Sequence record: PQ850612.1
DNA: 58,508 nucleotides
Reading direction: 5' to 3' (one strand)
From: Escherichia phage KarinMuster_Bas82
Shown here: one piece after another, positions 1 to 58,508 of the stretch
How the letters are laid out: each line of letters begins with the position of its first letter
Numbering within the stretch: the stretch's first letter is position 1
Program-made: the position numbers and the translations under genes
The notes under the pieces: model-generated
The model's database searches: none
Told to the model about the DNA's origin: nothing
The model's input: only the letters and a program-made list of their open reading frames with translations

Positions 1-1764
1 ATGAATAAGTTTACTGGAAATATTCATAATTACCCGCGCTGGCGGGATGCTTACGCAAACGACGAACGTATCTGGCGAAAAGGTCAGCCACGACCAGATT
101 ACAAACAGTGTTACATTGACCGCATTAACCTGTTAAATCGTATGCGCACGGATCGGACAATTGTCCCGGTACTGAAAAAGTATTACGAAACAAACCCGGT
201 AGCATTCATTCTCGACTGGGCGTTTACTTATGACCCGCGTAACGTCGGTACTGAATACCCACCCAACATGCCTTTCTGCCTTTTCGAACGTCAAATCGAC
301 ATGGTTCAGTTTGTTTACGAAGCGCTTGAAGACAAAGAAAAAGGGCTTTGGGAAAAATCGCGAGACTATGGTGCGACCTGGGTAGCCTGTGGTTTGTCCG
401 TGTGGGCGTGGCTGTATCGTCCTGGTTCGTCAGTCGGCTGGGGTTCACGTAAAGAACAGCTTGTCGATAAACTGGGCGACCCGGATAGTATTTTTGAAAA
501 GATTCGCCAGATTATCCGCGCATTACCACCGGAATTACGTCCTGTTGGTCTGCGTGAAAAAGATCATCTGGTTTATATGAAATGTATCAACCCAGAAAAC
601 GGTGCAACAATTACTGGTGAAGCTGGCGATAACATCGGTCGTGGTGGTCGTAAATCTGTCTATTTCTTGGATGAAGCGGCACACGTAGATCGTCCTGAAC
701 TGATTGAAGCGTCGTTGTCAGCTAACACCAACGTCCGTATTGATATCAGTTCGGTTAATGGCGTCGGTAACGTTTTTTATCGCAATCGTAAAGCTGGTCT
801 GGAATGGGAACCGGGCAAGAAATTACCTCGTGGTAAATTGCGTGTTATGGTTCTGGACTGGCGCGATCACCCAGCTAAAGATGACGAATGGTATAAGCGA
901 GAAAAACAATCGTTCGCTGAAAAAGGTTTACAGCATATTTTCGCACAGGAAGTTGACCGCGATTATGCCGCTGCTGTTCAGGGTGTACTGATTAAAGCTG
1001 AATGGGTTCGCGCTGCTTTTGATGCTTTCCGTGACACAGAATGGCGCAAAGCTAATGGACTACTTACACCAACAGGTCAACGTATCGCCGGACAGGATGC
1101 CGCAGACGGTGGTGAAGATGCCAGTGCGCTGGTAATTGCTCACGGTGTATTCCTGACACATCTGCAACTTGACCACAGGGGCGCTGAACTGGCTGCACCA
1201 GGAATGTTGACGATGGCTAATATGCTGGGTGTTGATGAATACTGGTACGAAGTTAACGGTGTTGGTACAGGCGTTAAAGTAGCGGCAAACGACCGAAAAG
1301 ATATTTTACGCTTCCGTGTGCGCCCGTGGTTACCGAATGGAAAAGTTGTGGATCCGGGTGGTGATATTATCGGTGGTACGAAACCTGGCGATAAAGACCG
1401 TAAATCAAACAAAGATTATTTCTCAAATTATAAAGCACAGGCATCGTGGGCGTTACGCCTGCGTTGTCAGCGAATTTATAAATGGTATGTGGAAGGTCAA
1501 CCACAGGATCCGGACGAAATCATTCTGATTGATCCATCACTGGAAAATGCACAACGGTTAGAAGCTGAGTTAAGTCAGCCAACGTATACCAGTAACGGTG
1601 CCGGGAAGATTGTGATCGACAAGAAACCAAACGGAAGTAAGTCACCAAACTTTTTCGATGCTGCGGTTATTGCACTATCACCAAAACGCACTGAATTTGT
1701 CGAAGAACCATTTACTGGTGGTGTGAATCCTGTTGGTACTCCTGAATACGGTGACATTTTTTAA
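1..1764 (+). CDS. terL: terminase large subunit
   Basis: 587-aa ORF; deviant Walker A-like KSRDYGATW, Walker B-like VYFLDEAAH, acidic C-terminal nuclease-like half; ORF starts at window base 1 so true 5' end may lie upstream. Confidence 0.75.
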   Translation: MNKFTGNIHNYPRWRDAYANDERIWRKGQPRPDYKQCYIDRINLLNRMRTDRTIVPVLKKYYETNPVAFILDWAFTYDPRNVGTEYPPNMPFCLFERQIDMVQFVYEALEDKEKGLWEKSRDYGATWVACGLSVWAWLYRPGSSVGWGSRKEQLVDKLGDPDSIFEKIRQIIRALPPELRPVGLREKDHLVYMKCINPENGATITGEAGDNIGRGGRKSVYFLDEAAHVDRPELIEASLSANTNVRIDISSVNGVGNVFYRNRKAGLEWEPGKKLPRGKLRVMVLDWRDHPAKDDEWYKREKQSFAEKGLQHIFAQEVDRDYAAAVQGVLIKAEWVRAAFDAFRDTEWRKANGLLTPTGQRIAGQDAADGGEDASALVIAHGVFLTHLQLDHRGAELAAPGMLTMANMLGVDEYWYEVNGVGTGVKVAANDRKDILRFRVRPWLPNGKVVDPGGDIIGGTKPGDKDRKSNKDYFSNYKAQASWALRLRCQRIYKWYVEGQPQDPDEIILIDPSLENAQRLEAELSQPTYTSNGAGKIVIDKKPNGSKSPNFFDAAVIALSPKRTEFVEEPFTGGVNPVGTPEYGDIF

Positions 1765-3982: not shown

Positions 3983-4008
3983 GCCCCAGAACTGTCCGGG
4001 GCTTTTTT
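3983..4008 (+). terminator. rho-independent terminator
   Basis: GCCCC...GGGGC hairpin then TTTTTT at about 4003-4008. Confidence 0.6.
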
Positions 4009-4283
4009 CAACGTCTGAAAGATGAAAGAACAGCGAGGCTAACAGAACCTAAACCGAATATGACGGCGTATGTTAGCTGATATTGAAGTTTCACAAAACC
4101 GTAATAATCGCTTTGTAATTCCACGATGTCAAAAGCAATTGAAAAACTGGTTACCAGCAACATGATTGAAAGAACACGAATCAGAGCAACTGCTAACCCT
4201 ATCACCCCTTGTTCTTTTTTCTCAGTTGTAATAACGACAACAATCATTAACAGAAGCGAAAAAGCAATATACATGTATTCCAT
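4008..4283 (-). CDS. small membrane protein
   Basis: 91-aa ORF, two hydrophobic segments. Confidence 0.5.
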   Translation of the reverse strand: MEYMYIAFSLLLMIVVVITTEKKEQGVIGLAVALIRVLSIMLLVTSFSIAFDIVELQSDYYGFVKLQYQLTYAVIFGLGSVSLAVLSSFRR

Positions 4284-4443
4284 AATTATTAGTCCCGATA
4301 AACTTCAGCACACCCATAAATTTTACCAGGGTTGTAAACCTGTTCAGCTTGTAACGCACCCTGACACTGTTCGAACGTCATAATGCGTTCTGTCACAGGT
4401 TCAATAGCCACACTATGCAGAACGAGCACCAGTACGTAACCAA

Positions 4444-4773
4444 TTAACATTTTCTTAGAGTCTCCCGCCAGCTCAGCCCGTGTAGGTTTACTTTACATAT
4501 AAGAATAAACGGAATATCAGGATCATACCATGAGCTACCGCTAATGTATGGGTCGTGTTCCCACGCGTAAACTTCACCGTCAGCATTAGTAGTAATAACT
4601 GTATAGTTTTCTGGTATAGTTACTGACAATCCAAAATACATTACAGTTTTATAAAGATTCATTTCAACCAGTGTCATTTTACAATCTGGTGCTTCTTCGT
4701 GGATATCCCACGATTTACCACAGTGTGAACACTGATATTCATCGTTACAGCGAATAGCGTTTACATGATTCAT
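4444..4773 (-). CDS. hypothetical Cys-containing protein
   Basis: start re-assigned to MNHVNAIR with SD AGGAGAATAATC; CSHCGKSW motif. Confidence 0.5.
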   Translation of the reverse strand: MNHVNAIRCNDEYQCSHCGKSWDIHEEAPDCKMTLVEMNLYKTVMYFGLSVTIPENYTVITTNADGEVYAWEHDPYISGSSWYDPDIPFILICKVNLHGLSWRETLRKC

Positions 4774-4775
4774 GA

Positions 4776-4934
4776 TTATTCTCCGTTTATCATACCTTTC
4801 GGATAACATTTCGCCCACACGTGGCGTCCGGCTGTACGAATATCTTTGTTTACTTGTTCACATGCAGATTTACTATTAAATTCAGCGCTGCCGGCCATAT
4901 TACCACTAAGAATGAAAATCAGAACATATACCAT
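4776..4934 (-). CDS. small protein with signal-peptide-like N-terminus
   Basis: 52-codon ORF MVYVLIFILSGNMAGSA...; stop overlaps next start. Confidence 0.3.
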   Translation of the reverse strand: MVYVLIFILSGNMAGSAEFNSKSACEQVNKDIRTAGRHVWAKCYPKGMINGE

Positions 4935-4937
4935 AAA

Positions 4938-5084
4938 TTAAAACCCCTTACTTTTAGCAATTTGTTGTGCACGTTTTTTAGTGTGACCAGCCGAAATTAA
5001 ACGTTTAATTTCGGCTTTACGACGTACAAAGTGATCGGCGCGTGAATTTTCAAACCACGACTGACTAATATTTCTTGGATTCAT
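4938..5084 (-). CDS. small basic protein
   Basis: 48-aa ORF with SD GGAGACAG; ATGA overlap with upstream gene. Confidence 0.4.
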   Translation of the reverse strand: MNPRNISQSWFENSRADHFVRRKAEIKRLISAGHTKKRAQQIAKSKGF

Positions 5085-5392
5085 TTAACTGTCTCCGGTA
5101 CAAACCACATTGACGCAAGATATGCACACCCGGCAATTTTATGTTCGTGTTTAGGTTCGAAACTACCCAGAATCACGCTGATGTGTGCGTGGGCCTGTTT
5201 AAAATCCACACCTTTAACAGCAACCGCGTATTCTTTCAGACCATTGAAAAACCATTTGCTGACCCACTGATTCCACGGGTTAGAATTTTCGAAAAATTCT
5301 TTCGGAATACTACCCATCGCCGGGAGAAATTCAGCAATGTTTTTAGGTCCAAAAGCAATATCCAGTTGTGTAATATTTTCATTCGGTTTCAT
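5081..5392 (-). CDS. hypothetical protein
   Basis: 103-aa ORF, first gene downstream of conserved promoter. Confidence 0.55.
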   Translation of the reverse strand: MKPNENITQLDIAFGPKNIAEFLPAMGSIPKEFFENSNPWNQWVSKWFFNGLKEYAVAVKGVDFKQAHAHISVILGSFEPKHEHKIAGCAYLASMWFVPETVK

Positions 5393-5423
5393 AGTTATTA
5401 CCCTTCGTTCATTTGATGACTAA

Positions 5424-5466
5424 AGCATAATCGCACGTTTGCAATCCGTCAAGAATTATTTTAACA
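5424..5466 (-). promoter_or_regulatory. conserved phage promoter (leftward)
   Basis: minus strand reads TTAAAATAATTCTTGACGGATTGC; -35 TTGACG, 17-bp spacer, -10 TATGCT. Confidence 0.6.
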
Positions 5467-5534
5467 CCGTGCAAAAAAACCATCACTGATATAACATACG
5501 TTAAGAACCGTAAACCGTATGGAGCCTGTAGAAC

Positions 5535-6890
5535 ATGGCTGATCAACAATTCGAACAACTAGCCGTTGCCGGGTACAGTCGAACAGGCAACCAGGTAAAC
5601 GACGATTTCCTTCCTAAACTAAACGGTAAACAAGGCCGTCGTATTCTTCGTCAGATGGCTGAGAACGATGAAACGATCGGTGGTGTACTGTTTGCCATGA
5701 GCAGTGTTTATCGTTCTGTGCAATGGCTTTTCGACCCATCTGACAAAGATGATCCAGAAGCTATCCGTTATTCAGAATGGTTACAGGATGCTATTGAAAA
5801 TAAAATGGGTGATCCGCGTGGTGCACTCCCGGATGATACCTGGTCCGCGTTCGTTCAGACATGGACAGACGTTGATGTATTCGGCTGGGGTTGGTATGAC
5901 ATCTGGGTCAAAGACCTTGATGACGGCACCGTGGGTATTGCCCGTCTGGTTCCTGTAGCACCTGAAACACTTGCTGGATGGGATATAGAAGAACCGACAG
6001 GTTATGTTCGTGGTATTTATCAACGTTCACCTAACCAGGGTACAACGACGTTAATCACTCGTGACCGTTCGCTTCATTTGATTTCAAGTCCGAATAAAGG
6101 TAACCCGGAAGGTTTATCACTGCTGCGCACAGCTTATCGTCCGTGGTACTACAAAAAAGTGAATATGGAAATCGAATCCATACTTGCCGAACGTGGTACA
6201 GGGTTCCCGGTAATTACTGTTAACGCAGATATTAAGAAAGCGGCTAATGACCCCAACGTTCCTGAACAACAACGTCAGGCAGCACAGGCGATGATTGATA
6301 ACTATGAAAACATCGTCGCTAATATCAAACGCAATGAACAATCAGGACTGGTGATTTATTCTAAACCGTATATCACGGGTTACGATAACGAAACAGGTGT
6401 TACCACGTATGGTGGTGAACAACAGGTGAAACTGGAATTCGTTACACCTAACCAGACCAGTTCCGTGGATATTGATCGGACGATTAAACGTCTGGATACC
6501 AGTATTGCTCGCGCGTTACTGGCAGATTTTATGTTTTTCGGAACGGGTGGTAATACCGGGAATAATGCTAACCTGGGTAGTCGTACTGAATTATGGATCC
6601 GCGCAATGCAATCACGTATTGATAGCATTGTAGAATGTGTTAACCGTCAGTTGATACCACAGTTATGGTCGTTAAACGCATTTCCTGATGAATACCGCCC
6701 GTCGATTCGCGCCGGGTCGATCAGTAAAGACAGTATCGAAACGTTGACCACTGCACTTGCACGACTTGCACAAGCTGGCGCACCTGTATTCCCGGATCCA
6801 GACCTTCAGGAATACGTGTATAAAGAGGCGGGTCTACCTATTACGGGGATTGATAAAGCCGGGGACGGATTACCGTCTATTGACGACTGA
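5535..6890 (+). CDS. portal protein (putative)
   Basis: 451-aa ORF, size and position in morphogenesis module; no diagnostic motif. Confidence 0.5.
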   Translation: MADQQFEQLAVAGYSRTGNQVNDDFLPKLNGKQGRRILRQMAENDETIGGVLFAMSSVYRSVQWLFDPSDKDDPEAIRYSEWLQDAIENKMGDPRGALPDDTWSAFVQTWTDVDVFGWGWYDIWVKDLDDGTVGIARLVPVAPETLAGWDIEEPTGYVRGIYQRSPNQGTTTLITRDRSLHLISSPNKGNPEGLSLLRTAYRPWYYKKVNMEIESILAERGTGFPVITVNADIKKAANDPNVPEQQRQAAQAMIDNYENIVANIKRNEQSGLVIYSKPYITGYDNETGVTTYGGEQQVKLEFVTPNQTSSVDIDRTIKRLDTSIARALLADFMFFGTGGNTGNNANLGSRTELWIRAMQSRIDSIVECVNRQLIPQLWSLNAFPDEYRPSIRAGSISKDSIETLTTALARLAQAGAPVFPDPDLQEYVYKEAGLPITGIDKAGDGLPSIDD

Positions 6891-6898
6891 ATGAAAAA

Positions 6899-6925
6899 GG
6901 GACCAGAAACGGTCCCTTAATTTTT
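6899..6925. terminator. bidirectional terminator between convergent genes
   Basis: GGGACC-agaaac-GGTCCC hairpin with T-rich flank. Confidence 0.6.
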
Positions 6926-7256
6926 ACTTAGTTTCAGGCTGCACGATTGACAGTAATTTACTCGCTTCATCAACCGCAGTCTGAATACGAGTCTGTAACG
7001 GATAACTGTTGTTGATCGCACGTTCCAGCGTTTTATCAAGCAATTGTAGTTTAACCTCATCATCGCCAGTGAACGCGTACATATCAGCAACGACTTCCTT
7101 AAACTGTGATGCTTGCTCAACAATAGTCGTGGTTACAATGTATTTCCAGACTTTGTTAAGTAGTTTAAATTTCACTTCGTTGTCAGCAACTGCATCAACC
7201 AGAATTTCAGCAGCAGTCTTGTCATATTTAACAAGCTCAAGAATTTCAAAACGCAT
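6924..7256 (-). CDS. hypothetical protein
   Basis: 110-aa ORF. Confidence 0.45.
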   Translation of the reverse strand: MRFEILELVKYDKTAAEILVDAVADNEVKFKLLNKVWKYIVTTTIVEQASQFKEVVADMYAFTGDDEVKLQLLDKTLERAINNSYPLQTRIQTAVDEASKLLSIVQPETK

Positions 7257-7271
7257 TTAAGTTTTCTCCTG

Positions 7272-7616
7272 TCAATTAACGTACTTCGCGATCAGTTTAT
7301 CACAGTCTTCGCGACAGGTAGCATACTTAAACAGGTCACTGGCTGCTTCTGCCCGGTAGTCAGTATCAATGGTGTAATGTTCATTAACATAGTTATAGGC
7401 TGCAAGGTAGTTACTGAACATCCCCGTGGTTACCACTTTCGGTTGTTCCCTTACGACCTTACCGTTAAACAGATATGCGATTAGCAAAATCAGACCACCG
7501 ATCACAGGACTTGTGAGAAATGCGATAAAGAACCATACACCAGGGTTACGACCTGTTTGTTTGGCAACACCCGCGACAACCAGACAGAAAAGAATCCATA
7601 AAATAATGAATAACAT
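7272..7616 (-). CDS. membrane protein
   Basis: 114-aa ORF, two N-terminal hydrophobic helices; downstream of conserved promoter. Confidence 0.5.
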   Translation of the reverse strand: MLFIILWILFCLVVAGVAKQTGRNPGVWFFIAFLTSPVIGGLILLIAYLFNGKVVREQPKVVTTGMFSNYLAAYNYVNEHYTIDTDYRAEAASDLFKYATCREDCDKLIAKYVN

Positions 7617-7646
7617 GATTATGTCCTCCTTTGTTTTGATGTTTGT

Positions 7647-7690
7647 AGGTTACACGTCCTTGTGTAATCCATCAAGAATTATTTTAAATT
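7647..7690 (-). promoter_or_regulatory. conserved phage promoter (leftward)
   Basis: TTAAAATAATTCTTGATGGATTAC; -10 TAACCT. Confidence 0.55.
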
Positions 7691-7936
7691 ATCATAGACG
7701 GGCGGTAAACCCATTGCGGCCTGTACAGACCGTTTTTCGTATTCCTCCCGAAGTTTCTGAAGCTGTTCAATACCGATGTCACAACCACGCATTATATCAG
7801 CGCACAGATCGTTGTAGGTCGCTTCAGATTGCTTGCTGTGTGGGTAATCAACACAGGACGGATCTGCAATAATGACTTTCGGCAGATACGCGACAGTATC
7901 GCCCATTGCGTTTTTAAATATCGTCATAGTTAGCAC
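7679..7936 (-). CDS. hypothetical protein
   Basis: 85-aa ORF. Confidence 0.4.
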   Translation of the reverse strand: MLTMTIFKNAMGDTVAYLPKVIIADPSCVDYPHSKQSEATYNDLCADIMRGCDIGIEQLQKLREEYEKRSVQAAMGLPPVYDNLK

Positions 7937-8409
7937 CCATGATTAAGTTCCTGACCTGGTTGAACACGAGTACCACAACATTTACAAACATAGCGCCACT
8001 CAAAACCGGGTTGTTCGTTGTAATTACGCCACCCTGCGTTATATAAAGCTGACGCAAGTTTAATATAAGATTCAGAACCTTTAGAATCACCATAATGACT
8101 AATTAAAACATAAACTAGGTTATCAATATCCTTTTCACGTTCTTTCGGAATAGGTCTGAAGTTTTCCGCGTTACCTACAATAAACGATTGTGTACCGTCA
8201 TCAGGCTTTAACCATGTATCATCACCATGATGACCTAATACCGTCACCTTTACCCAATCGTGATCAACGCTTGCTAACCACTCGCATACTGTACCGACAG
8301 GTGGTAAACCTTCACCATCCCATTGTTGTTTTTCATTCACATAGTCAGGACAAATACCATGTTTTTGATCACTGTTATCACGCATGTGTTTTTCACAAAA
8401 ACTTTTCAT
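7930..8409 (-). CDS. hypothetical protein
   Basis: 159-aa ORF. Confidence 0.5.
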   Translation of the reverse strand: MKSFCEKHMRDNSDQKHGICPDYVNEKQQWDGEGLPPVGTVCEWLASVDHDWVKVTVLGHHGDDTWLKPDDGTQSFIVGNAENFRPIPKEREKDIDNLVYVLISHYGDSKGSESYIKLASALYNAGWRNYNEQPGFEWRYVCKCCGTRVQPGQELNHGC

Positions 8410-8735
8410 AAATACGACCCCACAATTGCTGCACAGTTGACGATCGCTAAACGCGTTGCTTTTTCACGGTCTTCTCCGTGGCTAACTGGTTGCTTATAAT
8501 TAACGCCGGTGTCAGGGTTATTAACCGTCACTTCGTTGTCACGAACATCCAGATCCATGTACATGTTAACCATCAGACTGAAAGCATCCTCATTACGTGT
8601 AAGAGGGTTCCACAGGCGACCATTACCTATATCAATACCTTCGTTTATGTAACGTTCGTCGTACGCGACGTAATATTTACCCTGGATTTCAGCAGCCTTT
8701 GCTGCGTTAACTAATAAATCACGATTGTTCATCAC
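8406..8735 (-). CDS. hypothetical protein
   Basis: 109-aa ORF, overlapping stop/start. Confidence 0.5.
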   Translation of the reverse strand: MMNNRDLLVNAAKAAEIQGKYYVAYDERYINEGIDIGNGRLWNPLTRNEDAFSLMVNMYMDLDVRDNEVTVNNPDTGVNYKQPVSHGEDREKATRLAIVNCAAIVGSYL

Positions 8736-9235
8736 ACCCGTCCTGTTGATCCAAACCCGCCATTACGCTGACTATCAACATCTGGTAATTCTTCCACTTC
8801 AACCAGATTAACAGGTTCGACACGTTCAACCATGAGCTGACAAACGCGTTCACCGTCTGCGATAGTCTGTAATTTCTGCCCGTGGTTAGTCAGCGTAACG
8901 TAGTATTCTTCTTTATAATCACGATCACCGATACCCACACAGTTGATCAGTGACAAACCGTGTTTAAGACTCATGCCGGAACGTGGATAAAATTTAATGC
9001 AATATCCGTTATCAACTGACATTTTCAGACCAGTGGGGATCATAGCGCGGTCGCCGGGCCATAATGCGATTGTTCCTGCAACAACCGGACGTTCTACTTT
9101 AGCGCCTGATTCTGTGAATATGGTTACCGATTCTTCCCATAGGCAAGCACGAACGTCTAATCCGGCGCTGTCTGGTGTTGCACGTGTCGGAAGTTCAGCG
9201 TGGGGTGTTAGTTTTTTGATATACAGGTTAGTCAT
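8732..9235 (-). CDS. dut: dUTP diphosphatase
   Basis: 167 aa; dUTPase motifs AGLDVRA, PRSGMSLKHGL, GIGDRDYKEE, RNGGFGSTG. Confidence 0.9.
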   Translation of the reverse strand: MTNLYIKKLTPHAELPTRATPDSAGLDVRACLWEESVTIFTESGAKVERPVVAGTIALWPGDRAMIPTGLKMSVDNGYCIKFYPRSGMSLKHGLSLINCVGIGDRDYKEEYYVTLTNHGQKLQTIADGERVCQLMVERVEPVNLVEVEELPDVDSQRNGGFGSTGRV

Positions 9236-12576: not shown

Positions 12577-12957
12577 TTATTCCCCAGGGTGACGGATGTT
12601 TAAATCAGGGAGAATTTGCATCGGGTTAAACGTAACACGATAACGATACTGGTCTGTTGGTGAAGGGTCTGTTTGTTCAATGAAATAAGTTACCTCCGTG
12701 GTTAACCCCATAAAATGTTTCTTAACGTCGTTCGGACCAGTTTTACAGGTGATTTCGATCTCTTTGCTAGTGTTCTCACGGGCACAACGACCTTCGATAG
12801 ACAAAAGATACTCACCGTTACGAACGTTATAGAAAACGATACGACGATTTACTTCAAAGTTAGCTGCAGCGGTTGCAACGTTACGACTGGCAACATCAGC
12901 AGCGTTATCACAGGCTGTCAGGGTTGTTAACATTGCGTATAGAATCAGTTTCTTCAT
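12577..12957 (-). CDS. lipoprotein (candidate superinfection exclusion)
   Basis: 126 aa; signal peptide plus lipobox MKKLILYAMLTTLTAC. Confidence 0.6.
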   Translation of the reverse strand: MKKLILYAMLTTLTACDNAADVASRNVATAAANFEVNRRIVFYNVRNGEYLLSIEGRCARENTSKEIEITCKTGPNDVKKHFMGLTTEVTYFIEQTDPSPTDQYRYRVTFNPMQILPDLNIRHPGE

Positions 12958-12972
12958 TTTAGTGTCTCGGAG

Positions 12973-13356
12973 TTATTTAATGATTAATGTTGGTTGTAAG
13001 TCTTCTTCATACCAAGTCCAACCAATGCATGTACCATCTTCAGCATCAACATATGGTTTCAACCAGTCGATAAATTGTTCAATTTCGCTATCATAGTTTT
13101 TAATATCACTACGACTAAAAACATATTGAGTATCGGTGAAATCAAATTTAGGACAACTATTTATTACTTCCGGGTGATGATAAAAACTGCTACAACTACC
13201 AATAAAATTCCATCTGGGAAGACTGAAAAACTTATGTTGTGGTAGTTTCTCTGGTTCTTTTTCACCACAGAACATGTGTGCAATAATAGCTTTCACATCC
13301 ACAGGTGCATCTACTTTAATCTGACACTTCAACACTAATTCGGTATACATTCCCAT
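12973..13356 (-). CDS. hypothetical protein
   Basis: start re-assigned to MGMYTELV with SD GAGGGTG. Confidence 0.5.
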   Translation of the reverse strand: MGMYTELVLKCQIKVDAPVDVKAIIAHMFCGEKEPEKLPQHKFFSLPRWNFIGSCSSFYHHPEVINSCPKFDFTDTQYVFSRSDIKNYDSEIEQFIDWLKPYVDAEDGTCIGWTWYEEDLQPTLIIK

Positions 13357-13402
13357 TTTCACACCCTCGTTCATAAGCAACCCATCGCTGCTTCCCGTGA
13401 TA

Positions 13403-13446
13403 AAGATACCCTACCGTCTGTAATCCGTCAAGAATTATTTTAAAGA
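13403..13446 (-). promoter_or_regulatory. conserved phage promoter (leftward)
   Basis: TTTAAAATAATTCTTGACGGATTAC; -10 TATCTT. Confidence 0.6.
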
Positions 13447-13557
13447 TACAGCTAATACAGAACGTGTACTAACTGTACATGGTTTTACATAGGTTTCATG
13501 ATTTTGAGTTGCGGCTAATACTGAATCTGTATTAGTAGATCATAGATTCATAGATCG

Positions 13558-13660
13558 CGTCATGTTTATTTTTAACCGACCATTCTCTATCTTATTCTTT
13601 TTATTATCTTTTTATAGATAACATAGAAAACATAGATAAACAGAAGAGTAGTATAAGTAG
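13558..13660. repeat. AT-rich ~100-bp repeat, copy A
   Basis: about 90% identical to 53274-53375; shared core CTCTATCTTATTCTTTTTATTATCTTTTTATAGATAACATAGAAAACATAGATA. Confidence 0.8.
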
Positions 13661-13730
13661 TAAAAGTTGCTGCAAGTAGGAGAGGTTTAAAAGGTATAGG
13701 GAGTCGCATACTTCCCATGAATCTATACAT

Positions 13731-13769
13731 AAAATAATTCTTGACGGATTACACCGACACAACTACCCT
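13731..13769 (+). promoter_or_regulatory. conserved phage promoter (rightward)
   Basis: AAAATAATTCTTGACGGATTAC; -10 TACCCT. Confidence 0.55.
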
Positions 13770-21322: not shown

Positions 21323-21586
21323 TTATATTTTACCCTCCTGCATCAATCCTTCAGCAACAGTCATTTGGTAACGTGGTGCTTTCCATGCTTGAAGTGCTTT
21401 TTCTGCACCTTTTTGTGTTTTATACGGTTTGATACTTGTTAAAATAGCAGTTGTAATACCTGCACCATAACCACGGTCTGTTTCCTGACAAACTCGAAAC
21501 AAACCATCAATTTGTTTAACTACTAAACGTTTGAACGCAATGTTGCCCGTTTCTTTGTTGATGTAGCGTTGAATTACCCGTTCCAT
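21323..21586 (-). CDS. hypothetical protein (leftward moron)
   Basis: 87-aa ORF with own conserved promoter. Confidence 0.45.
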   Translation of the reverse strand: MERVIQRYINKETGNIAFKRLVVKQIDGLFRVCQETDRGYGAGITTAILTSIKPYKTQKGAEKALQAWKAPRYQMTVAEGLMQEGKI

Positions 21587-22147: not shown

Positions 22148-22443
22148 TTGACTTCCTCTTGTGGAACGAGCGGACAGACGGGGATGACCTGGACTGGGTT
22201 GCACAAGGGGCGGCTGCACGTGGTATATCTGTTCCGGTTGTTGTACGGAAACGTCCTGAATTGCGACCTGATGCTATCTTTTACTGGAATGCTTTTTTGG
22301 ATTTGATAGGTGCTGATTGGGTTGCTTGTGAGCGTTATGCACGGGTGTATAACGTTGATGTACAATTCCTATGGAAATTATTGGTAGCATTGCGGTCTGC
22401 ACGTGTTGTCGAGATGAAGAAAAATAAACATAAGCCCGGTTAG
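21725..22443 (+). CDS. tail assembly chaperone frameshift-extended form
   Basis: fusion ...EWEKQIEKN-LIDFLLWNERTDGDD... by -1 shift. Confidence 0.55.
22138..22144 (+). other. -1 programmed frameshift site A_AAA_AAC
   Basis: heptamer ends 1 nt before stop; -1 frame open for 94 further codons to 22443 and lacks its own ATG/SD. Confidence 0.6.
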
Positions 22444-22457
22444 TTCCGGGCTTTTTC
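22433..22457. terminator. hairpin terminator between convergent genes
   Basis: AGCCCGG-ttagtt-CCGGGCT then TTTTT. Confidence 0.55.
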
Positions 22458-23354
22458 ATTTATGTAGTCGAGGATTGCAGGAGAGTATTTAAACCACTCT
22501 GTAGCACCGTCAAAGCCTTTGAGACGCGCATTAAGTTCACGGAAGACCTTGTGTACCTCTTGTTCCAGTTTGTAAGCATCAGCGCCGTGTGGAAACGGGT
22601 ATGACACGAGTTTAACCACTGGGTGTGTTGTTTCGCGTTGTAGTTGTCGTAGTCGCCGTTTTAAGTCGTTTGTGATACCGACTTTAAGCAGAGTAGGGCA
22701 CTTTTTATCGTCAGCTAACACGTAGAGTGTACCGGGTTCTGACGGGTTAAAACCTGTTTGTGAACACTGAGGACAACCATGTTTTTTATGCAAATGCATG
22801 GCTGGACGTTGTTCAAACACTCCATGCTCTGGACAGATGATTTTTATTCGAGTGAAATTGTTAATATACGCCACCAACGAATAGTCGTAACGGTCCCCAT
22901 GAACTTCGCGAGCACGAGTAATGAAATCTTCGGCGCCTAAGCGTTTTTGTTCAGACGACTGTTTACGAGCACATTGTGGGCAACCTTTCCCGTGAACATG
23001 ATTGCCCGGTGTCTGTTCAAACACACCATGTATCGGACAGATAATCTTCACAGGTGTGCACCAATTCACATACTCCACCAGCGAATAGTCATACTTGTCC
23101 CCATGAACTTCACGAGCACGAGTGATAAACTCTCCTGTGGTTAAACGTTTTTGTTCAACAGTACATTGGGTACAACCTGCTTTCATTGAAGTGTGATTGT
23201 TCGGAGTCTGTTCAAATACCCCGTGTTCGGGGCAGATAATTTTTACTTTGGTGTTAGCACCTTCATACTCCACCAGCGAATAGTCATACTTGTCACCATG
23301 AACTTCACGGGCACGCGTGATAAACTCTTCTGTGGTTAAACGTTTCCTACTCAT
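22440..23354 (-). CDS. T5orf172/GIY-YIG-like domain protein with three N-terminal repeats
   Basis: 304 aa; three ~60-aa repeats (EFITRAREVHGDKYDYSLVEY...CPxHGVFEQ...C.QC); C-terminal GTLYVLADDKK...LLKVGITNDLKRRLRQL. Confidence 0.6.
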   Translation of the reverse strand: MSRKRLTTEEFITRAREVHGDKYDYSLVEYEGANTKVKIICPEHGVFEQTPNNHTSMKAGCTQCTVEQKRLTTGEFITRAREVHGDKYDYSLVEYVNWCTPVKIICPIHGVFEQTPGNHVHGKGCPQCARKQSSEQKRLGAEDFITRAREVHGDRYDYSLVAYINNFTRIKIICPEHGVFEQRPAMHLHKKHGCPQCSQTGFNPSEPGTLYVLADDKKCPTLLKVGITNDLKRRLRQLQRETTHPVVKLVSYPFPHGADAYKLEQEVHKVFRELNARLKGFDGATEWFKYSPAILDYINEKARN

Positions 23355-52251: not shown

Positions 52252-52278
52252 GCGGGGTAATCATCCCCGCTATCTTTA
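52252..52278. terminator. bidirectional terminator
   Basis: GCGGGG-taatcat-CCCCGC with T-rich flanks. Confidence 0.6.
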
Positions 52279-53031
52279 TTGACCCATCATATCTTTATAC
52301 ATCATCAAAACAACATCATCCGGCATATTGTCTACATCACAATGTGGGTTGTGTGATAACGCATACAGTCTGATTTTCTCCTTCAAATCGCTGACATCGA
52401 CTACAGGTGCTTCCACTCGTGCTACAGGTGCTTCCACTCGTGCTACAGGTGGTTCCACTCGTGCTACAGGTGGTTCACAAACCATCACGTTAAACGGTGT
52501 ACCGGTGCCTTCGTATTTTTCAAGCAAATCGACCATTACGTTTACACATTCCGGGATCCATCCCCGGCGCAAACCATTCTGAATCCAACTGTCAGTAATT
52601 GTGTGTTCGTTTAAATTCCTGCGTAGCACATATCTTGCACATTCAAAATTACCGCACATCGCCTCAAACCGTGTCCACACGTCGTGACCGTGAACAGCTT
52701 CCAGGATCTGTGAATCAACGTATCTGACACGTTGCCAGTAGTTATTAGCAAAACGCCTGTGCGGTAATTTCTGACGGAGTTCGGTAACCGGTATTGTGTG
52801 TTTAAGAACAATGTTTTCGTCAGAATATTGTACTGGCAAGGGTGACAGTGTGAAGTCAGTAATCTCTTCAAGAATAATACTGATCGTTTCATATTTAGGA
52901 TGAAACCTACCGCTTAACCATTGGTTGTAACGACCAACAGTTACCTTAACACCTCGACGATTAAGGTATTCAACAGCATTTTGTACCCCGCCTTTTAAAT
53001 CTATCAATTCGTCTAAAAGGTTCTTTTTCAT
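52276..53031 (-). CDS. hypothetical protein with (E)PPVARV repeats
   Basis: start at MKKNLLDEL with SD AAGGGTG; four 21-bp in-frame repeats. Confidence 0.5.
   Translation of the reverse strand: MKKNLLDELIDLKGGVQNAVEYLNRRGVKVTVGRYNQWLSGRFHPKYETISIILEEITDFTLSPLPVQYSDENIVLKHTIPVTELRQKLPHRRFANNYWQRVRYVDSQILEAVHGHDVWTRFEAMCGNFECARYVLRRNLNEHTITDSWIQNGLRRGWIPECVNVMVDLLEKYEGTGTPFNVMVCEPPVARVEPPVARVEAPVARVEAPVVDVSDLKEKIRLYALSHNPHCDVDNMPDDVVLMMYKDMMGQ
52401..52500 (-). repeat. 21-bp tandem repeat x4 plus partial
   Basis: CTACAGGTGCTTCCACTCGTG x2 then CTACAGGTGGTTCCACTCGTG x2. Confidence 0.8.
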
Positions 53032-53069
53032 TATCACACCCTTCTTGTTTGACCACGGGTAAATCATAA

Positions 53070-53260
53070 CGCGCGTTAGCAGCTAGTGCAAGACGTGCTT
53101 TATATGTTAGTGTATTTACACCTAACGCACGTTGTGCTTTAGCAGCTAGTGCAAGATGCACGTTGTGTATTAGCTGTTAGTGCACGTTGTGTATCTATGT
53201 TGGTACAGCTAATGCACGTTGTGAATTATGTAGTGCATATAGTGCATTAAAGTTATACTT
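53070..53260. repeat. iteron-like array
   Basis: GCACGTTGTG x4 at 24-32 bp spacing, TTAGCAGCTAGTGCAAGA x2, TATTAGCTGT recurring. Confidence 0.75.
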
Positions 53261-53273
53261 AACATAGATTTCG

Positions 53274-53375
53274 TCATGTTTATTTTTTAACCAACCTCTC
53301 TCTATCTTATTCTTTTTATTATCTTTTTATAGATAACATAGAAAACATAGATACAAAGAAGAAGTAGTATAGAAA
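53274..53375. repeat. AT-rich ~100-bp repeat, copy B
   Basis: near-identical to 13558-13660. Confidence 0.8.
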
Positions 53376-53642
53376 GATAGAGATAGTGCATATAGTGTAT
53401 TAGCTGTAAATAGAGCTAAAATAAAAGTCTGGGAGATACCTATTGTAATCTATGTTTTTATGCAAGTCTTTGAATTGATTGTGATTATGGGCTACGTATT
53501 TATGTATGTAGTCGAAAATTAGTGCATGTTGTGCACTAACTGTAAAATTAATACTAACATTGTATTAGCTGTAAAACAGGGCGTGTGGACAACCCGTGGG
53601 TATCTGTGGGAAACTAATTTAAAATTTATGGGAGACAAATTT

Positions 53643-54278
53643 ATGAAAATTTCAGACCGGGCTAAAAGAGCTGCTCTGGAGTTGTCGCCGGAACAGCTTA
53701 AGTTCGCCAACCTGTGGTTAGATCGTGTCAATAATGGCTTCAGCAATACGCGATGCGTTTTAGAAGCTTATCCGGGTCACACGTCTGATGCAGCGGCTGC
53801 AACGACCGCACACCGCCTCCTGTCGAATACGAAGGTGTTGAACTATCTGGACGCGATGGGAAGTCATGCGCTTGAGTCTGTCGGGGAATCGTTAACGAGT
53901 CGTGTTGAGTGGTGGAAACGAGCGGCAAGCACGGCTGAAGAATTACTGGAACCGTATTGTCAGCGTGTCATCGTCCCTGGTGAAGACGATACAGAAGCGA
54001 AACACCTGTGGGTGAACAGTACCGACGATATCCCCAGTCATCTGCAACAGTACGTAGTTTGCTACAAACGTTACATGCTGGGTGGATACATTCTGGTGAC
54101 ACGTGAACTGTTCGACCCGAAAACTCGTGCAAAAGCGTCTGAACAACTGGATAAGATCACCGGGAACAGTATCGACCGTGTGGAATTGTCTGGCGTGGTT
54201 GGAAACGTGGTTCAGAGTGTTCCTGAAGGTGCAACCATCGACGACATCGCGCAACTTTATCAGAAGGCACTCAAATAG
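53643..54278 (+). CDS. terS: terminase small subunit
   Basis: start at MKISDRAK (SD GGAGA); LSPEQLKFANLWLDRVNNGFSNTRCVLEAY...AHRLLSNTKVLNYLDAM matches terminase small-subunit N-domain pattern. Confidence 0.65.
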   Translation: MKISDRAKRAALELSPEQLKFANLWLDRVNNGFSNTRCVLEAYPGHTSDAAAATTAHRLLSNTKVLNYLDAMGSHALESVGESLTSRVEWWKRAASTAEELLEPYCQRVIVPGEDDTEAKHLWVNSTDDIPSHLQQYVVCYKRYMLGGYILVTRELFDPKTRAKASEQLDKITGNSIDRVELSGVVGNVVQSVPEGATIDDIAQLYQKALK

Positions 54279-54369
54279 GCGGTTGTTCCGGCTTAAATAA
54301 CACCGGAAACCGTTTGCGTTTTCGATAAACAGGGTTGAGTGGTGCGATGGTACAGGGTAGGGTGTTAAA

Positions 54370-54390
54370 GCCCCTTACGGGGCGTTTTAG
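54370..54390 (+). terminator. possible terminator after terS
   Basis: GCCCC-ttac-GGGGC then GTTTT. Confidence 0.35.
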
Positions 54391-54683
54391 AGCTTATCAC
54401 GTAAAATCGCTATTTCGCTCATTGCTGAAAACATGTTTGATTTCATACGATCAGATTTTTCGATACGACATTTATCGTTGATTATAGAAATGGCGATATT
54501 GAAAGCCTCAATTTTCGCTTCTTTTATCGCTTGTTTACGGGGTTTTTGTTTTACCTTCGGTATTTCACGAAGGCATTTTGGAATATAATTCATTACTGGA
54601 CATATAAGAACCTTCAACCAAACATTTTTGCTTCGATTGGTTTTACACGATAAGCGAAAATCACACCGACCTGAAAAGCACAT
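54387..54683 (-). CDS. hypothetical protein
   Basis: 98-aa ORF; start may be internal Met. Confidence 0.35.
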   Translation of the reverse strand: MCFSGRCDFRLSCKTNRSKNVWLKVLICPVMNYIPKCLREIPKVKQKPRKQAIKEAKIEAFNIAISIINDKCRIEKSDRMKSNMFSAMSEIAILRDKL

Positions 54684-54777
54684 TCACCATATTCAGCTAC
54701 GATATATTTTTCACACTCTTCTTTAGTTTCGAAGTTTTTCATTTTTCGGTTCCTCACAATTCGTTGTCTATGTGAGT

Positions 54778-54824
54778 AATTTACACATCCTTGTGCAATC
54801 CGTCAAGAATTATTTTAAATAAAA
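54778..54824 (-). promoter_or_regulatory. conserved phage promoter (leftward)
   Basis: TTTAAAATAATTCTTGACGGATTGC; -10 TAAATT. Confidence 0.55.
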
Positions 54825-54843
54825 CCCCGGTTAGTTCCGGGGT
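54824..54843 (-). terminator. terminator hairpin
   Basis: CCCCGG-aactaa-CCGGGG then TTTTATTT on minus strand; same loop as the 22433 hairpin. Confidence 0.5.
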
Positions 54844-54851
54844 AATGTTCA

Positions 54852-55187
54852 TTATTCGCCCAACGCTTCTTTCAACAACCGATACGTTTCAGGACATTTA
54901 CCGGATCCGCGTTCACGTTCATAAGCTGCGCTAATAACATCCCAGTTTTCAATCACGCCTTTAAACGCCGGACACTTTTCAGCAATCAATGGAAAACTGT
55001 TTCTGATTTCCGGTACAGCTTCAATCAGGAACCAGCAACGGCGAAAATCAGCAACATCCCGTGGCGCACGAAATCCCCATTCACCATCCATTTCGTTACC
55101 TGTGTGAATGCAGACCATCGTTTTAGAACTCAGACCAGTTTCACCAGAGCATAACCACTGAATAATACGTTCCTGTTCTGTTTTCAT
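54852..55187 (-). CDS. hypothetical protein
   Basis: 111-aa ORF overlapping rdgC stop. Confidence 0.5.
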
Positions 55188-56101
55188 CGTTTAGCCTCCC
55201 CACCCAAAGCAGTGATAAGTTGTTTAATCAGCATTGAAAGTTCACCTGTCATCAGTACAAAATCAGCGTCGAATCGTGCCAGAACATCTTCACGATTCAT
55301 GTCGTCATTCTGTAACACCAGTTCGTCACAGAATTTCACACGGTTTAACGCCGTGCTGTCAGTTAGCGTAAACGTTACCCGCTGCTGCCAGTCCATCGCC
55401 AGCTTTGTAACGAATTTCCCGGCTTCAATATGTGTGGCTATTTCATCACTGGTTAAATCCTGTTTTTTAACGCGTGCAACACCGCCATCAGTCAGGTTCG
55501 CTTTCAGTTCCGCAGAATCACCCATCGCGAAATAATCGCCAGGGACTTTACCGAGTTTTACCCACTCCGTTGTTGTCAGTTCAACAGGGTTTTCCATCGT
55601 CAGCGGGACGACTGGCAAACTACCCAGGGATTTACGCAACAGTGCTAATGCATCTTCAGCCCGTTTAGCACTGGGCGCATCAACCACAATCAACCCGTTA
55701 GTGATGTCGATCCACAACTGTGTACGACTGTTTTTAACGAATGCGCGTGGTAACAGGCTGTGCAATACTTCATCTTTCAACGCGTCTTTCTCAGTCTTTT
55801 TCAGGCGACGACCCTGTTCCGTTTCCAGTTTAGTGATACGTGCGTTCAGATGCTGTTTAATGACCGGACCCGGAATAATCTTTTCCTGTTTCTGGATGGT
55901 CAGCAGATATTGCCCATTAGCCTGGTGAACCAGCGTATGATGTTGTTCAGTTGCCGGAATCCATCCAGTACGCGCCATATCCTGTGAACCACATGGATTG
56001 AATTGAAACGCATACAGGCTGTCTTCCAGTGTTGGTAACTGGGCCATTAATTGCATCGGGTTAGTCAGACGATAAATGATTGCGTTTTTAAAGAAGTTCA
56101 T
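55184..56101 (-). CDS. rdgC: recombination-associated protein RdgC homolog
   Basis: 305 aa; [36 protein letters not shown] and [16 protein letters not shown] closely resemble enterobacterial RdgC (from memory). Confidence 0.75.
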
Positions 56102-56331
56102 AATTCAATGTCCTGTTTTATTCGTGAATGAAGTAATCAACCGTTTTGGTTTACTTTTCATATAATTAACCAAAGCATTTCATTTCCTGTTCCTTCTTTT
56201 CTTCGCCTCGCGTCGGGCTTTTGCAATACCTGTTTTACGATGTGGTTGTTTACGATCAGTAATAATTCCTTGTGTTGGAACACCCCACAACGTGTTAGTG
56301 GAACTTAACAATTTAATCGCGTAATCAAGAA

Positions 56332-56598
56332 TCATACGTTCACCACTTTTAAATCAGGTGTCAGGCTACGATGGTCATGATGACCGTTCATGGTAAATGA
56401 GAAAGTGTAATCGCACTGCTCACCATCGAACGTGAAGGGGATTTGAAACCCTGTATCGTCAGTGATGCGAACTTTAACCGGGTATTCAGCTTGCGGATCG
56501 ACCGCTACAACAGTGCCGAATGGCTGAGATTTGCGACGTGCGAGAATTTCTAACAATCGTGGACTGGTGATTTCTACGTGTTGACCAGTTTTAAACAT
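56332..56598 (-). CDS. hypothetical protein
   Basis: start at MFKTGQHV with SD GGAG. Confidence 0.5.
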   Translation of the reverse strand: MFKTGQHVEITSPRLLEILARRKSQPFGTVVAVDPQAEYPVKVRITDDTGFQIPFTFDGEQCDYTFSFTMNGHHDHRSLTPDLKVVNV

Positions 56599-56630
56599 GG
56601 TGATAACTCCAGTTGTTTTACACAAACTGA

Positions 56631-56674
56631 AGTCTATCTGATAATGTGTAAGCCGTCAAGAATTATTTTAAACC
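56631..56674 (-). promoter_or_regulatory. conserved phage promoter (leftward)
   Basis: TTTAAAATAATTCTTGACGGCTTAC; -10 TAGACT. Confidence 0.55.
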
Positions 56675-56849
56675 GTCCATCACTGTCTGCAGCGTAACAA
56701 ATACCGTGACTGTAGATTGTCGCAGTTCGTGTAATGCGTTGATAGTCTGAGCATTGGTTACGAACACGCAGGTCATACCCGGATTGTACGATCAGCCAGG
56801 TTGCAATGATGGCGAGTAATTTTAAAACGTATCTGAACATGTTCCACAC
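56634..56849 (-). CDS. small membrane-anchored protein
   Basis: 71 aa; hydrophobic N-terminus; overlaps promoter element. Confidence 0.35.
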   Translation of the reverse strand: MWNMFRYVLKLLAIIATWLIVQSGYDLRVRNQCSDYQRITRTATIYSHGICYAADSDGRFKIILDGLHIIR

Positions 56850-56911
56850 TCCTGTTTGATAGTTTCAGGGTAGTGTGGAACTGGCGAAGATGGTATAGGA
56901 TTTACGATAAT

Positions 56912-57334
56912 TTAACAGGGGTTTCGACTGGCATAAAACTTTGTACCGACTGGCATACGTTCCATGTTGAGTTTTCCGCGCAGGTGTTTGTATGTTTCAC
57001 CGGGAGAACGTAGTTCTGCTTCACACGGTCTTTCAACAATTTCACCCACGGGATCACCTAACGCGCCTTTCCATCCTTCCCACATTGCGCACATGGTGAT
57101 AAACCAGACACTACCTAAACTGGCTTTCTTGTTCTCCCAGAACCAGTCGATGAACTCTATCGACATTCCATGTTGTTTTGCAATTTCGTAACGGTCATCC
57201 ACTTTTTTAACCCTCCACCCATATTTAGCACGATTCATAGCGGTCCGTTCATCATTCGTGGTGAACAGTACGCGCCCGGATTTATGACAAATGTTCCACA
57301 TTATAACTACCGCCTGAATAGTGATGTTTACCAC
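56912..57334 (-). CDS. hypothetical protein
   Basis: 140-aa ORF; start uncertain. Confidence 0.4.
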   Translation of the reverse strand: MVNITIQAVVIMWNICHKSGRVLFTTNDERTAMNRAKYGWRVKKVDDRYEIAKQHGMSIEFIDWFWENKKASLGSVWFITMCAMWEGWKGALGDPVGEIVERPCEAELRSPGETYKHLRGKLNMERMPVGTKFYASRNPC

Positions 57335-57342
57335 ACAACGAT

Positions 57343-58193
57343 CTACTTACACGTTTCACACTTGGCCCCTTCAGCCTTGTCTATTCCACACTGCAAATAT
57401 TCATTTTCTTTTTGTTCTAATGTTTTTCCACGACACAAACCAACAGTGGTACTTTCTGGTGTCATTTTATATTTCTGATAGTTTGCTTCCAGTTGTCGAA
57501 CACGGTGATAGTGTGCCGGATACATTGTGCGTAACATGTGGATTTCACCACCTGTCAAATGAGGGCAACATATACAACTTGATTTACCAGGATAATACAA
57601 ACCAACTTCTTCAACTGCGTCAGACTCTTTTTCACCAATATCCCAGTCAAATAATGGGAATACCTGACACCATTTATCTTCTGGTTGCCACTTGGCAGCC
57701 CGGTTTGGTTCATCAGCGTTAATACCAACAATACGTAAAATCGTACCCGTGTGACTGGACAATGGACGACCTTTACCGTTGACACCCCATGCTTTCCAGG
57801 CTTTGGGGTGGTTGTTGAAATATTTATCAGCAGTTTCTTTTTTAAAACGTAAGCTACATGATTTAGAACCGAAAGCAGCAGCCGGGAGATCGTTAGCTGC
57901 TTCTGCCGTACCAATTACGCTTAATGGAAAACCGTATTTATCTTTCTTATTGAGTATTACAACTTTCGACCAGTTGCGGTCAGCGCACCATTTTTTAAAT
58001 GTTCTATGAACTTATAGGTGTGAGGAAATTCTGAACCCGTATCACAGAAAACGATTTCGTCAGGTTCAAATCCGCGTTTATACAGTTCTGCAATTAACAT
58101 TGCTGTGTCATCACCCATACCGCCCATAACTACACGAAAACTGGTGCTTATCCACGCGAGTTCGATAGGTGGGCGATTGTTGAAAAGTATCAT
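57343..58193 (-). CDS. PAPS reductase-like protein split by a -1 frame change
   Basis: N-terminal frame 58193-57957: VVMGGMGDDTAM and FCDTGSEFPHTYKF; body in -1 frame, open from about 58008 with no start codon until TTG at 57762; frames overlap at A6 run 57996-57991. Confidence 0.55.
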
Positions 58194-58403
58194 TAGAAGT
58201 AGCTCCCAGTAGACTTTACATCATCAACATTCTGTAAACCGTTAGTGACTGTTGCAACTATACGATGAAGTTTATGGTTCATTTACCGACTGATTTTAGA
58301 TCCAACATATATACCTGCGAACATGGTTAAAGCACCCATGATAAAGCCTATTACAAACGTATATTCTTCCACGATTCACTACTCCTGTTCATTTGATAAC
58401 CAG

Positions 58404-58447
58404 ATTCTAGTTGTTCATCTGTAATCTGTCAAGAATTATTTTAAACC
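58404..58447 (-). promoter_or_regulatory. conserved phage promoter (leftward)
   Basis: TTTAAAATAATTCTTGACAGATTAC; -10 TAGAAT. Confidence 0.6.
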
Positions 58448-58508
58448 TCTGTTACCACACGTCACCCGTGGTAAACTGTACAGAACAGTTACAAACGGGT
58501 CGATAACC

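Follow-up and report, generated by a model that had tools for sequence, protein, structure and literature searches.

Gene block between terS and terL

In Escherichia phage KarinMuster_Bas82 (sequence record PQ850612.1), analysed here as one stretch of 58,508 nucleotides (the window), the genes for the small and the large terminase subunit are set apart by a block of leftward genes, among them one encoding a full-length RdgC homolog. The small subunit gene terS (53643-54278, plus strand, 211 amino acids) lies near the end of the window, the large subunit gene terL (1-1764, plus strand) at its start. Across the joined ends, 4,230 bp extend from the terS stop (54278) to the terL start (base 1), and all plausible genes in between (54387-58372) are encoded on the minus strand, which confirms the separation described in a first-pass annotation made from the sequence alone. 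TerS was assigned to its family by a profile match (PHROG 51, E 8e-11) together with its location heading the packaging genes; it has no match in Pfam or NCBIfam, and orthologs of equal length are annotated in phages PJ16, AVIO78A, Sergei and Carvaje. If translation began further upstream, at 53526, the protein would have 250 amino acids. TerL matches PHROG 2 (E 5e-17) and is annotated as such in all relatives.

By its arrangement, the block is made up of three tandem, moron-like predicted transcription units directed leftward, all of which begin with one member of a shared promoter family. The sequence TTTAAAATAATTCTTGAC occurs in three exact copies (54802-54819, 56655-56672 and 58428-58445), each continuing with nGATTACA, and belongs to the predicted promoters P1 (54778-54819), P2 (56631-56672) and P3 (58404-58445), all on the minus strand. 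P1 comprises an A/T-rich upstream tract, TTGACG, a spacer and TAAATT; P2, which lies within the 3' end of an open reading frame (ORF) for 68 amino acids and is the promoter nearest upstream of the RdgC gene, has TTGACG and TAGACT; P3 has TTGACA and TAGAAT and agrees with the consensus in 11 of 12 positions. The spacer is 17 bp long and the -10 element of the form TAnnnT in all three, and with consensus scores of 9 to 11 out of 12 they are of the sigma-70 type. The block would probably be transcribed by the host sigma-70 RNA polymerase with no need for phage factors.

The P3 unit holds two tiny ORFs of 29 amino acids each (58283-58372 and a further possible one at 58193-58282), a PAPS-reductase-like gene (57343-58193), an ORF of 140 amino acids (56912-57334; 96 amino acids from an alternative start at 57202) and the 68-amino acid ORF (56634-56840). 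The P2 unit consists of ORFs for 88 amino acids (56332-56598) and for a basic protein of 51 amino acids (56180-56335), the RdgC gene (55184-56101), a gene for a protein of 111 amino acids (54852-55187) and a terminator. In the P1 unit, ORFs of 42 (54614-54742, PHROG 8009) and 72 amino acids (54387-54605, PHROG 5305) are followed by a hairpin. All of these are on the minus strand. The 140-amino acid ORF matches PHROG 25300 and 30984 and, weakly, DUF5490, and the 68-amino acid ORF matches PHROG 38795; the 88-amino acid ORF has no family match. Apart from the DUF5490 match, PADLOC, NCBIfam and Pfam returned nothing for the small ORFs of the block. The several small membrane proteins proposed in the first-pass annotation are a generous count, since a convincing hydrophobic segment is found in only two small ORFs, namely a single hydrophobic helix in the 29-amino acid ORF at 58283-58372 (a candidate membrane peptide) and an N-terminal segment in the 68-amino acid ORF (a candidate membrane protein).

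The intrinsic terminator ending the RdgC unit (54824-54843, minus strand) is strong (z -3.4), with a 7-bp GC stem followed by UUUUAUUU, and its counterpart is annotated in AVIO78A and Sergei. A short GC hairpin (GCCCC-GTAA-GGGGC, 54370-54383), placed where terS and the last leftward gene converge, is a candidate bidirectional terminator; it is weak (-11.4 kcal/mol, z -1.1), and the better T run is on the plus strand. No LexA box was found in the block, the only CTGT-N8-ACAG of the window (at 42513) being at chance level, and Rfam gave zero matches in the whole window at the gathering threshold.

Genome ends and layout in related phages

A megablast search with positions 53400-58508 matched the Escherichia phages PDP46, PJ16 and AVIO78A (93-95% identity), and also Sergei, Solent, Sasha, SP-062/069 and 9NA, all of Salmonella, and the Klebsiella phage Carvaje. 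Segments shared with PDP46, PJ16 and AVIO78A are 91-97% identical at the DNA level and syntenic, and the virion genes stand in canonical order with small genes interspersed, as described for 9NA (PMC4153490). On these comparisons, the window represents, in circularly permuted form, the genome of a siphophage of the 9NA-like group (Nonanavirus/Sashavirus).

For the topology, the window end was joined to the window start and aligned against the relatives. The resulting junction (58508|1) is gap-free in PDP46, AVIO78A, PJ16 and the metagenomic contig L007 and carries just 1 to 8 gaps in Sergei, 9NA and Carvaje. Since it is spanned in six relatives and one contig, seven records in all, the window ends are contiguous, and the reading of the window as a genome in the first-pass annotation holds. 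9NA was assembled as a circle with a pac fragment, and its DNA is circularly permuted by pac-headful packaging (PMC4153490). This mode of packaging was demonstrated by experiment in 9NA; for the phage studied here, the alignments show the contiguity of the window ends.

In 9NA, terS (gp1) is followed by nine leftward genes (gp2-gp10) and terL (gp11), and the gap is 3.1 kb long, compared to 4.2 kb in the window; Sergei has sixteen leftward genes in 5.4 kb, with RdgC as gp07. The same build of terS, leftward block and terL is found in PDP46, PJ16, AVIO78A, Carvaje and L007. Because the relatives share this layout, the separation of terS and terL is a trait of the lineage rather than a peculiarity of this genome. 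As judged from these genomes, a conserved accessory-gene block between terS and terL is carried by all 9NA-like virulent siphophages, and its gene content is mosaic between relatives. Gene order, junction and promoter motif are shared among the 9NA-like phages (9NA, Sasha, Sergei, Solent, FSL SP-062/069, AVIO78A, PJ16 and PDP46), and RdgC is encoded at the equivalent place in Sergei, Solent, SP-062/069, AVIO78A, PJ16 and PDP46, whereas cassette content, block length and a frameshifted PAPS-reductase-like copy distinguish KarinMuster_Bas82 from them. According to the GenBank records of relatives and the 9NA genome announcement, published genomes already contain this layout, and the RdgC gene is annotated in several of them; both are known, ordinary and not surprising.

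RdgC homolog

The product of the RdgC gene (305 amino acids) is a full-length member of its family. It scored 365.9 bits against Pfam PF04381 (cut-off 25, E 2e-109), covering profile positions 2 to 298 of 298, and passed NCBIfam NF001462 (403, cut-off 330) and NF001464 (310, cut-off 227). With 450 bits it stayed below the cut-off of 501 for the E. coli-type equivalog NF001460. The match to PHROG 724, which comprises phage RdgC homologs, had an E-value of 1e-120. Among known structures, E. coli RdgC (PDB 2OWL) was matched over its full length (E 6e-120), and Pseudomonas RdgC (2OWY) was matched as well. The first-pass annotation had called the protein highly similar to that of the host; its identity as an RdgC is borne out, and the similarity amounts to 62.8% amino acid identity over 301 aligned residues and approximately 68% at the DNA level.

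Residues of E. coli RdgC important for the ring dimer and for its loading onto circular DNA are known from mutagenesis (Briggs et al. 2010, PMC2965237): R118 and F120 in the gate, Q212, E218, H222 and K227 in the horseshoe, and R97, K98, K100 and K101 in the basic fingertip. All ten are kept in the phage protein (K98 as R), and they are invariant or nearly so among 28 phage homologs and E. coli RdgC. The pairwise ratio of non-synonymous to synonymous substitution rates (dN/dS) of the gene was between 0.12 and 0.20 in comparison with PDP46, PJ16, AVIO78A and Sergei. Residue conservation and substitution rates indicate that the middle unit encodes an intact RdgC kept by purifying selection. The phage protein thus resembles E. 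coli RdgC in its full-length alignment and its conserved fingertip, gate and horseshoe; unlike the latter it is encoded by a phage, behind a phage promoter, and belongs to a separate phage clade.

The best 120 protein clusters (formed at 90% identity; 76-93% identical to the RdgC of the window) are all located on contigs of at most 61 kb, several of which are complete at 53 to 61 kb. A chromosomal rdgC is present in 5,425 of 5,426 complete E. coli genomes, sharing approximately 68% DNA identity with the phage gene, and no copy of the phage rdgC above 80% DNA identity was detected in any of these 5,426 genomes. A recent capture of the host gene was rejected on the grounds of the phage-borne clade and the low DNA identity to chromosomal rdgC. 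The phage-sized contigs, the DNA identity and the missed NF001460 cut-off argue instead for an RdgC of an old phage lineage, of which the protein is probably a functional member. Of 50,697 phage records, 484 contain an RdgC homolog; among them are P1/P7 (HrdC), ICP1 and numerous phages of Vibrio, Pseudomonas and Klebsiella. P7 HrdC is 55.8% identical to the RdgC of the window, and both are accessory genes for DNA metabolism carried by phages; P1 is a temperate plasmid-prophage, in contrast to the virulent siphophage studied here, and for both the role of RdgC is presumed.

The start of the gene for the 111-amino acid protein overlaps the rdgC stop (ATGA), and the adjacency of the two genes is conserved in PDP46, AVIO78A, SP-062 and L007. 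Phage 434, mEp213, Stx phages and P22-like phages encode homologs of this protein too, in these cases without RdgC. An AlphaFold model predicts it to be all-helical with confidence (pLDDT 94).

PAPS-reductase-like gene

The PAPS-reductase-like gene (57343-58193) encodes a putative PP-loop ATPase with matches to PHROG 424 (E 1e-30), marginally to PF01507 (22.6 bits, cut-off 22.5) and to the PADLOC model of SspD (E 7e-9). The protein resembles SspD, the PP-loop ATPase of phosphorothioation systems, and stands alone in the window. The first-pass annotation correctly saw the gene as split by a frame change. The reading frame breaks into 78 amino acids and a C-terminal part, so that there is no intact ORF. 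The site is a run of six A (57991-57996, minus strand) where an intact relative has seven, and insertion of one A restores an ORF of 283 amino acids. The relative is the metagenomic protein P0121, which is intact and 99% identical; its DNA reads CATTTAAAAAAATGG (A7). Intact homologs of 280 to 284 amino acids are common in other phages.

Relative to the copy in Carvaje, two single-base indels were found, one in each phage, and the dN/dS is 0.04 at a dS of 1.4 on either side of the lesion. Because this value holds on both sides, the change from A7 to A6 would be either a recent inactivation or a sequencing error at a homopolymer. In PJ16, a deletion has left only the last 73 codons. The cassette occupies 1027-1879 in Carvaje (record L003), 4486-4704 in PJ16 and 7001-7852 in L007; it adjoins terL in the window and terS in Carvaje and L007, an example of how cassettes are shuffled within this mosaic block. 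Despite the dN/dS of 0.04, the cassette has been damaged independently in three isolated phages and each time differently (A7 to A6 in the window, a T run longer by one T in Carvaje, a 73-codon remnant in PJ16), whereas it is intact in an uncultured relative. Growth on laboratory hosts may have led to this loss.

Promoter family and leftward cassettes

The three conserved promoters noted in the first-pass annotation are present as exact copies, yet they are only 3 of 14 in the genome. The promoter of approximately 26 nucleotides (TTTAAAATAATTCTTGACnGATTACA) has 14 good copies in the window, against a chance expectation of approximately 0.19 matches at up to three mismatches. Eleven of the copies are directed leftward (5448, 7671, 9455, 13427, 21643, 23590, 40970, 41033, 54802, 56655 and 58428, minus strand) and three rightward (13728, 46326 and 48097, plus strand). 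The family pattern is an A/T-rich upstream tract, TTGAC(A/G), GATTACA, a 17-bp spacer and TAnnnT, and the motif is conserved in PDP46, PJ16 and L007. The upstream A/T tract and the start of the spacer are conserved far beyond what a generic UP element needs. The conservation hints at a binding site for a regulator, or at a recombination linker for the exchange of cassettes.

Leftward, promoter-headed cassettes also interrupt the rightward series of terL, portal, head morphogenesis, major head and tail genes. They are located (all on the minus strand) in the gap between terL and portal gene (4008-5558), between the portal and a head-morphogenesis gene (6924-9235, including a dUTPase at 8732-9235), ahead of the scaffold and capsid genes (12577-13762) and amid the tail genes (21323-21586 and 22440-23354, the latter with an HNH-type endonuclease). 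Given these cassettes elsewhere, the gap between terS and terL is no special device; it is the largest example of an arrangement used throughout the genome.

The cassettes are comparable to the morons and early-left regions of lambdoid phages, which likewise consist of short units of promoter, one or several genes and terminator between conserved genes, with mosaic content. Families are shared as well, with homologs of the 111-amino acid protein in phage 434, mEp213 and Stx phages and RdgC homologs in some early-left regions (PMC12315714). In contrast to lambdoid morons, the units described here are arranged in tandem, use one highly conserved promoter sequence throughout the phage and lie within the packaging and virion gene series of a virulent phage.

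Sequences flanking the block

Shortly before terL, an inverted repeat (TTACCAC-N9-GTGGTAA, 58452-58477, plus strand) overlaps an extended -10-like sequence (TGGTAAACT), 31 nucleotides ahead of the terL start; this element may serve the packaging genes as a rightward promoter or as an operator. A related candidate late-promoter motif upstream of terL, CGTGGTAAACTGTACAG, showed no significant repetition in a genome-wide scan.

On the other side of the block, approximately 570 bp of non-coding DNA upstream of terS (53070-53640, plus strand) contain dense iteron-like repeats of the families TAGTGCAyGTTGTG and TGTATTAGCTGTAAA, which flank an AT-rich tract at approximately 53280-53400. Conservation of this region within the Sashavirus group is 94-97%, and a number of GenBank records have their ends inside it because they were linearised there. 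It is a candidate for the pac or TerS-binding region or for a replication origin. Divergent from it lies a leftward ORF of 263 amino acids (52276-53067, minus strand; PHROG 25538), the product of which contains a tandem peptide repeat, (E/A)PPVARV.

Discussion

Overall, the region is, with good confidence, best explained as a group-wide accessory block of three transcription units, with an intact RdgC gene and a recently inactivated copy of a PAPS-reductase-like cassette that is strongly conserved otherwise. Several observations weigh against this explanation and the role of RdgC that goes with it. The promoter copy at 13728 on the plus strand heads scaffold and capsid genes, for which reason the promoter family is not obviously specific for early genes. 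RdgC is dispensable within the 9NA-like group: it is absent from 9NA, was not detected at the DNA level in Sasha, where the match to the window stops before the gene, and is cut to a remnant of 110 amino acids in Carvaje (L003, 2680-3012). The host already has an rdgC of its own, as found in all but one of the E. coli genomes searched. Furthermore, P1 hrdC was non-essential in a CRISPR interference (CRISPRi) screen (PMC10695390), so that any benefit from RdgC would be conditional, and the literature searched contained no experimental work on an RdgC from a phage. The Carvaje remnant is in itself an example of how the gene can decay within the group.

In E. coli, RdgC is a ring dimer binding DNA non-specifically (PMC11077077), and it lowers strand exchange, ATPase activity and LexA cleavage by RecA, according to the summary of Drees 2006 given there. 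From the conserved key residues and the purifying selection, it is plausible that the phage protein modulates RecA-dependent processes, as the first-pass annotation had proposed. The phage RdgC would form a ring-shaped dimer that clamps double-stranded DNA non-specifically. On the reading with the best support, infection would raise the dose of RdgC, and RecA, together with its loading by RecFOR, might be kept off the replicating phage DNA. On phage or host DNA, the RecA filament would then be hindered in strand exchange, ATPase activity and LexA cleavage, and the SOS response might be damped. Recombination and repair of the replicating phage DNA could be left to the phage's own proteins, namely a DUF2800/PD-(D/E)XK exonuclease and a Gp2.5-like single-stranded DNA-binding or annealing protein encoded next to its polymerase. 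The specific role as a RecA antagonist, drawn by analogy to E. coli RdgC, is a tentative assignment to which we give somewhat less than even chances.

Three other explanations have to be set against parts of this picture. If cutting or assembly of the window had created the distance between terS and terL artificially, the two genes would really be adjacent or the ends unjoined. The sole point in favour of such an artefact is that the window begins exactly at the ATG of terL, while the junction is continuous in seven independent records, among them the Sanger-sequenced 9NA and a metagenomic contig, the leftward block lies between the two genes in every one of them, and 9NA DNA is circularly permuted and packaged by the pac-headful mode (PMC4153490). 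Adjacency and unjoined ends are both refuted by the junction alignments, and the probability left to an artefact is negligible. For the PAPS-reductase-like gene, the split frame might still yield a full-length protein if programmed -1 ribosomal frameshifting or transcriptional slippage took place at A_AAA_AAT. The contraction to six A does create an X_XXY_YYZ heptamer in the right frame, the gene was under very strong purifying selection in the comparison with Carvaje, and the Carvaje copy is frameshifted too, in a T run. Yet the natural copy of 99% identity is in frame with seven A and intact single ORFs are the rule elsewhere, the Carvaje lesion lies at another site and would require a shift in the opposite direction, PJ16 has just the last 73 codons, and a sequencing error at the A homopolymer could produce the same pattern. 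Since there is also no stimulatory RNA structure downstream (z 0.02), programmed frameshifting is very improbable; with the heptamer present but lacking such a structure, and with A7 in frame in the closest relative, it was rejected in favour of a recent lesion or a sequencing error.

The third alternative concerns the function of RdgC, which might not act on RecA at all and might instead have a role like that of RexA. RexA and RdgC share their fold and non-specific DNA binding (PMC11077077), Casjens and co-workers suggest such a role for the RdgC homologs that lambdoid phages encode in their early-left regions (PMC12315714), and the co-transcribed 111-amino acid gene likewise has homologs in lambdoid phages. 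The protein encoded here is, however, a canonical RdgC (63% identity to that of E. coli, with gate, finger and horseshoe intact) and not a divergent RexA-like form. A RexB-like partner was not identified among the block proteins tested, which matched no defence-system model or named family beyond those of RdgC and the PAPS-reductase-like protein, and the phage is virulent and has no lysogen to protect (PMC4153490). For these reasons a RexA-like role is less likely than an action on RecA, and we regard it as improbable.

A broader proposal is that the phage RdgC clade, with more than 120 clusters from 9NA-like and related 60-kb phages besides hundreds of more distant phage homologs, constitutes a dedicated counter-measure against RecA-dependent processes of the host. 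Possible targets are the SOS induction of prophages residing in the host, abortive defence triggered by RecA or RecFOR, and interference of RecA with the annealing-based recombination of the phage. This proposal is doubtful, with odds clearly below those of RecA antagonism as such.

As a discovery, the block between terS and terL matters little, since layout and RdgC gene are known from relatives, and its residual value is practical. RdgC is common in phages, and laboratory E. coli and Salmonella are hosts of this phage group, which eases genetics on RecA antagonism. With a tractable phage of E. coli K-12 that carries RdgC, the long-unclear role of RdgC in vivo would become directly testable.

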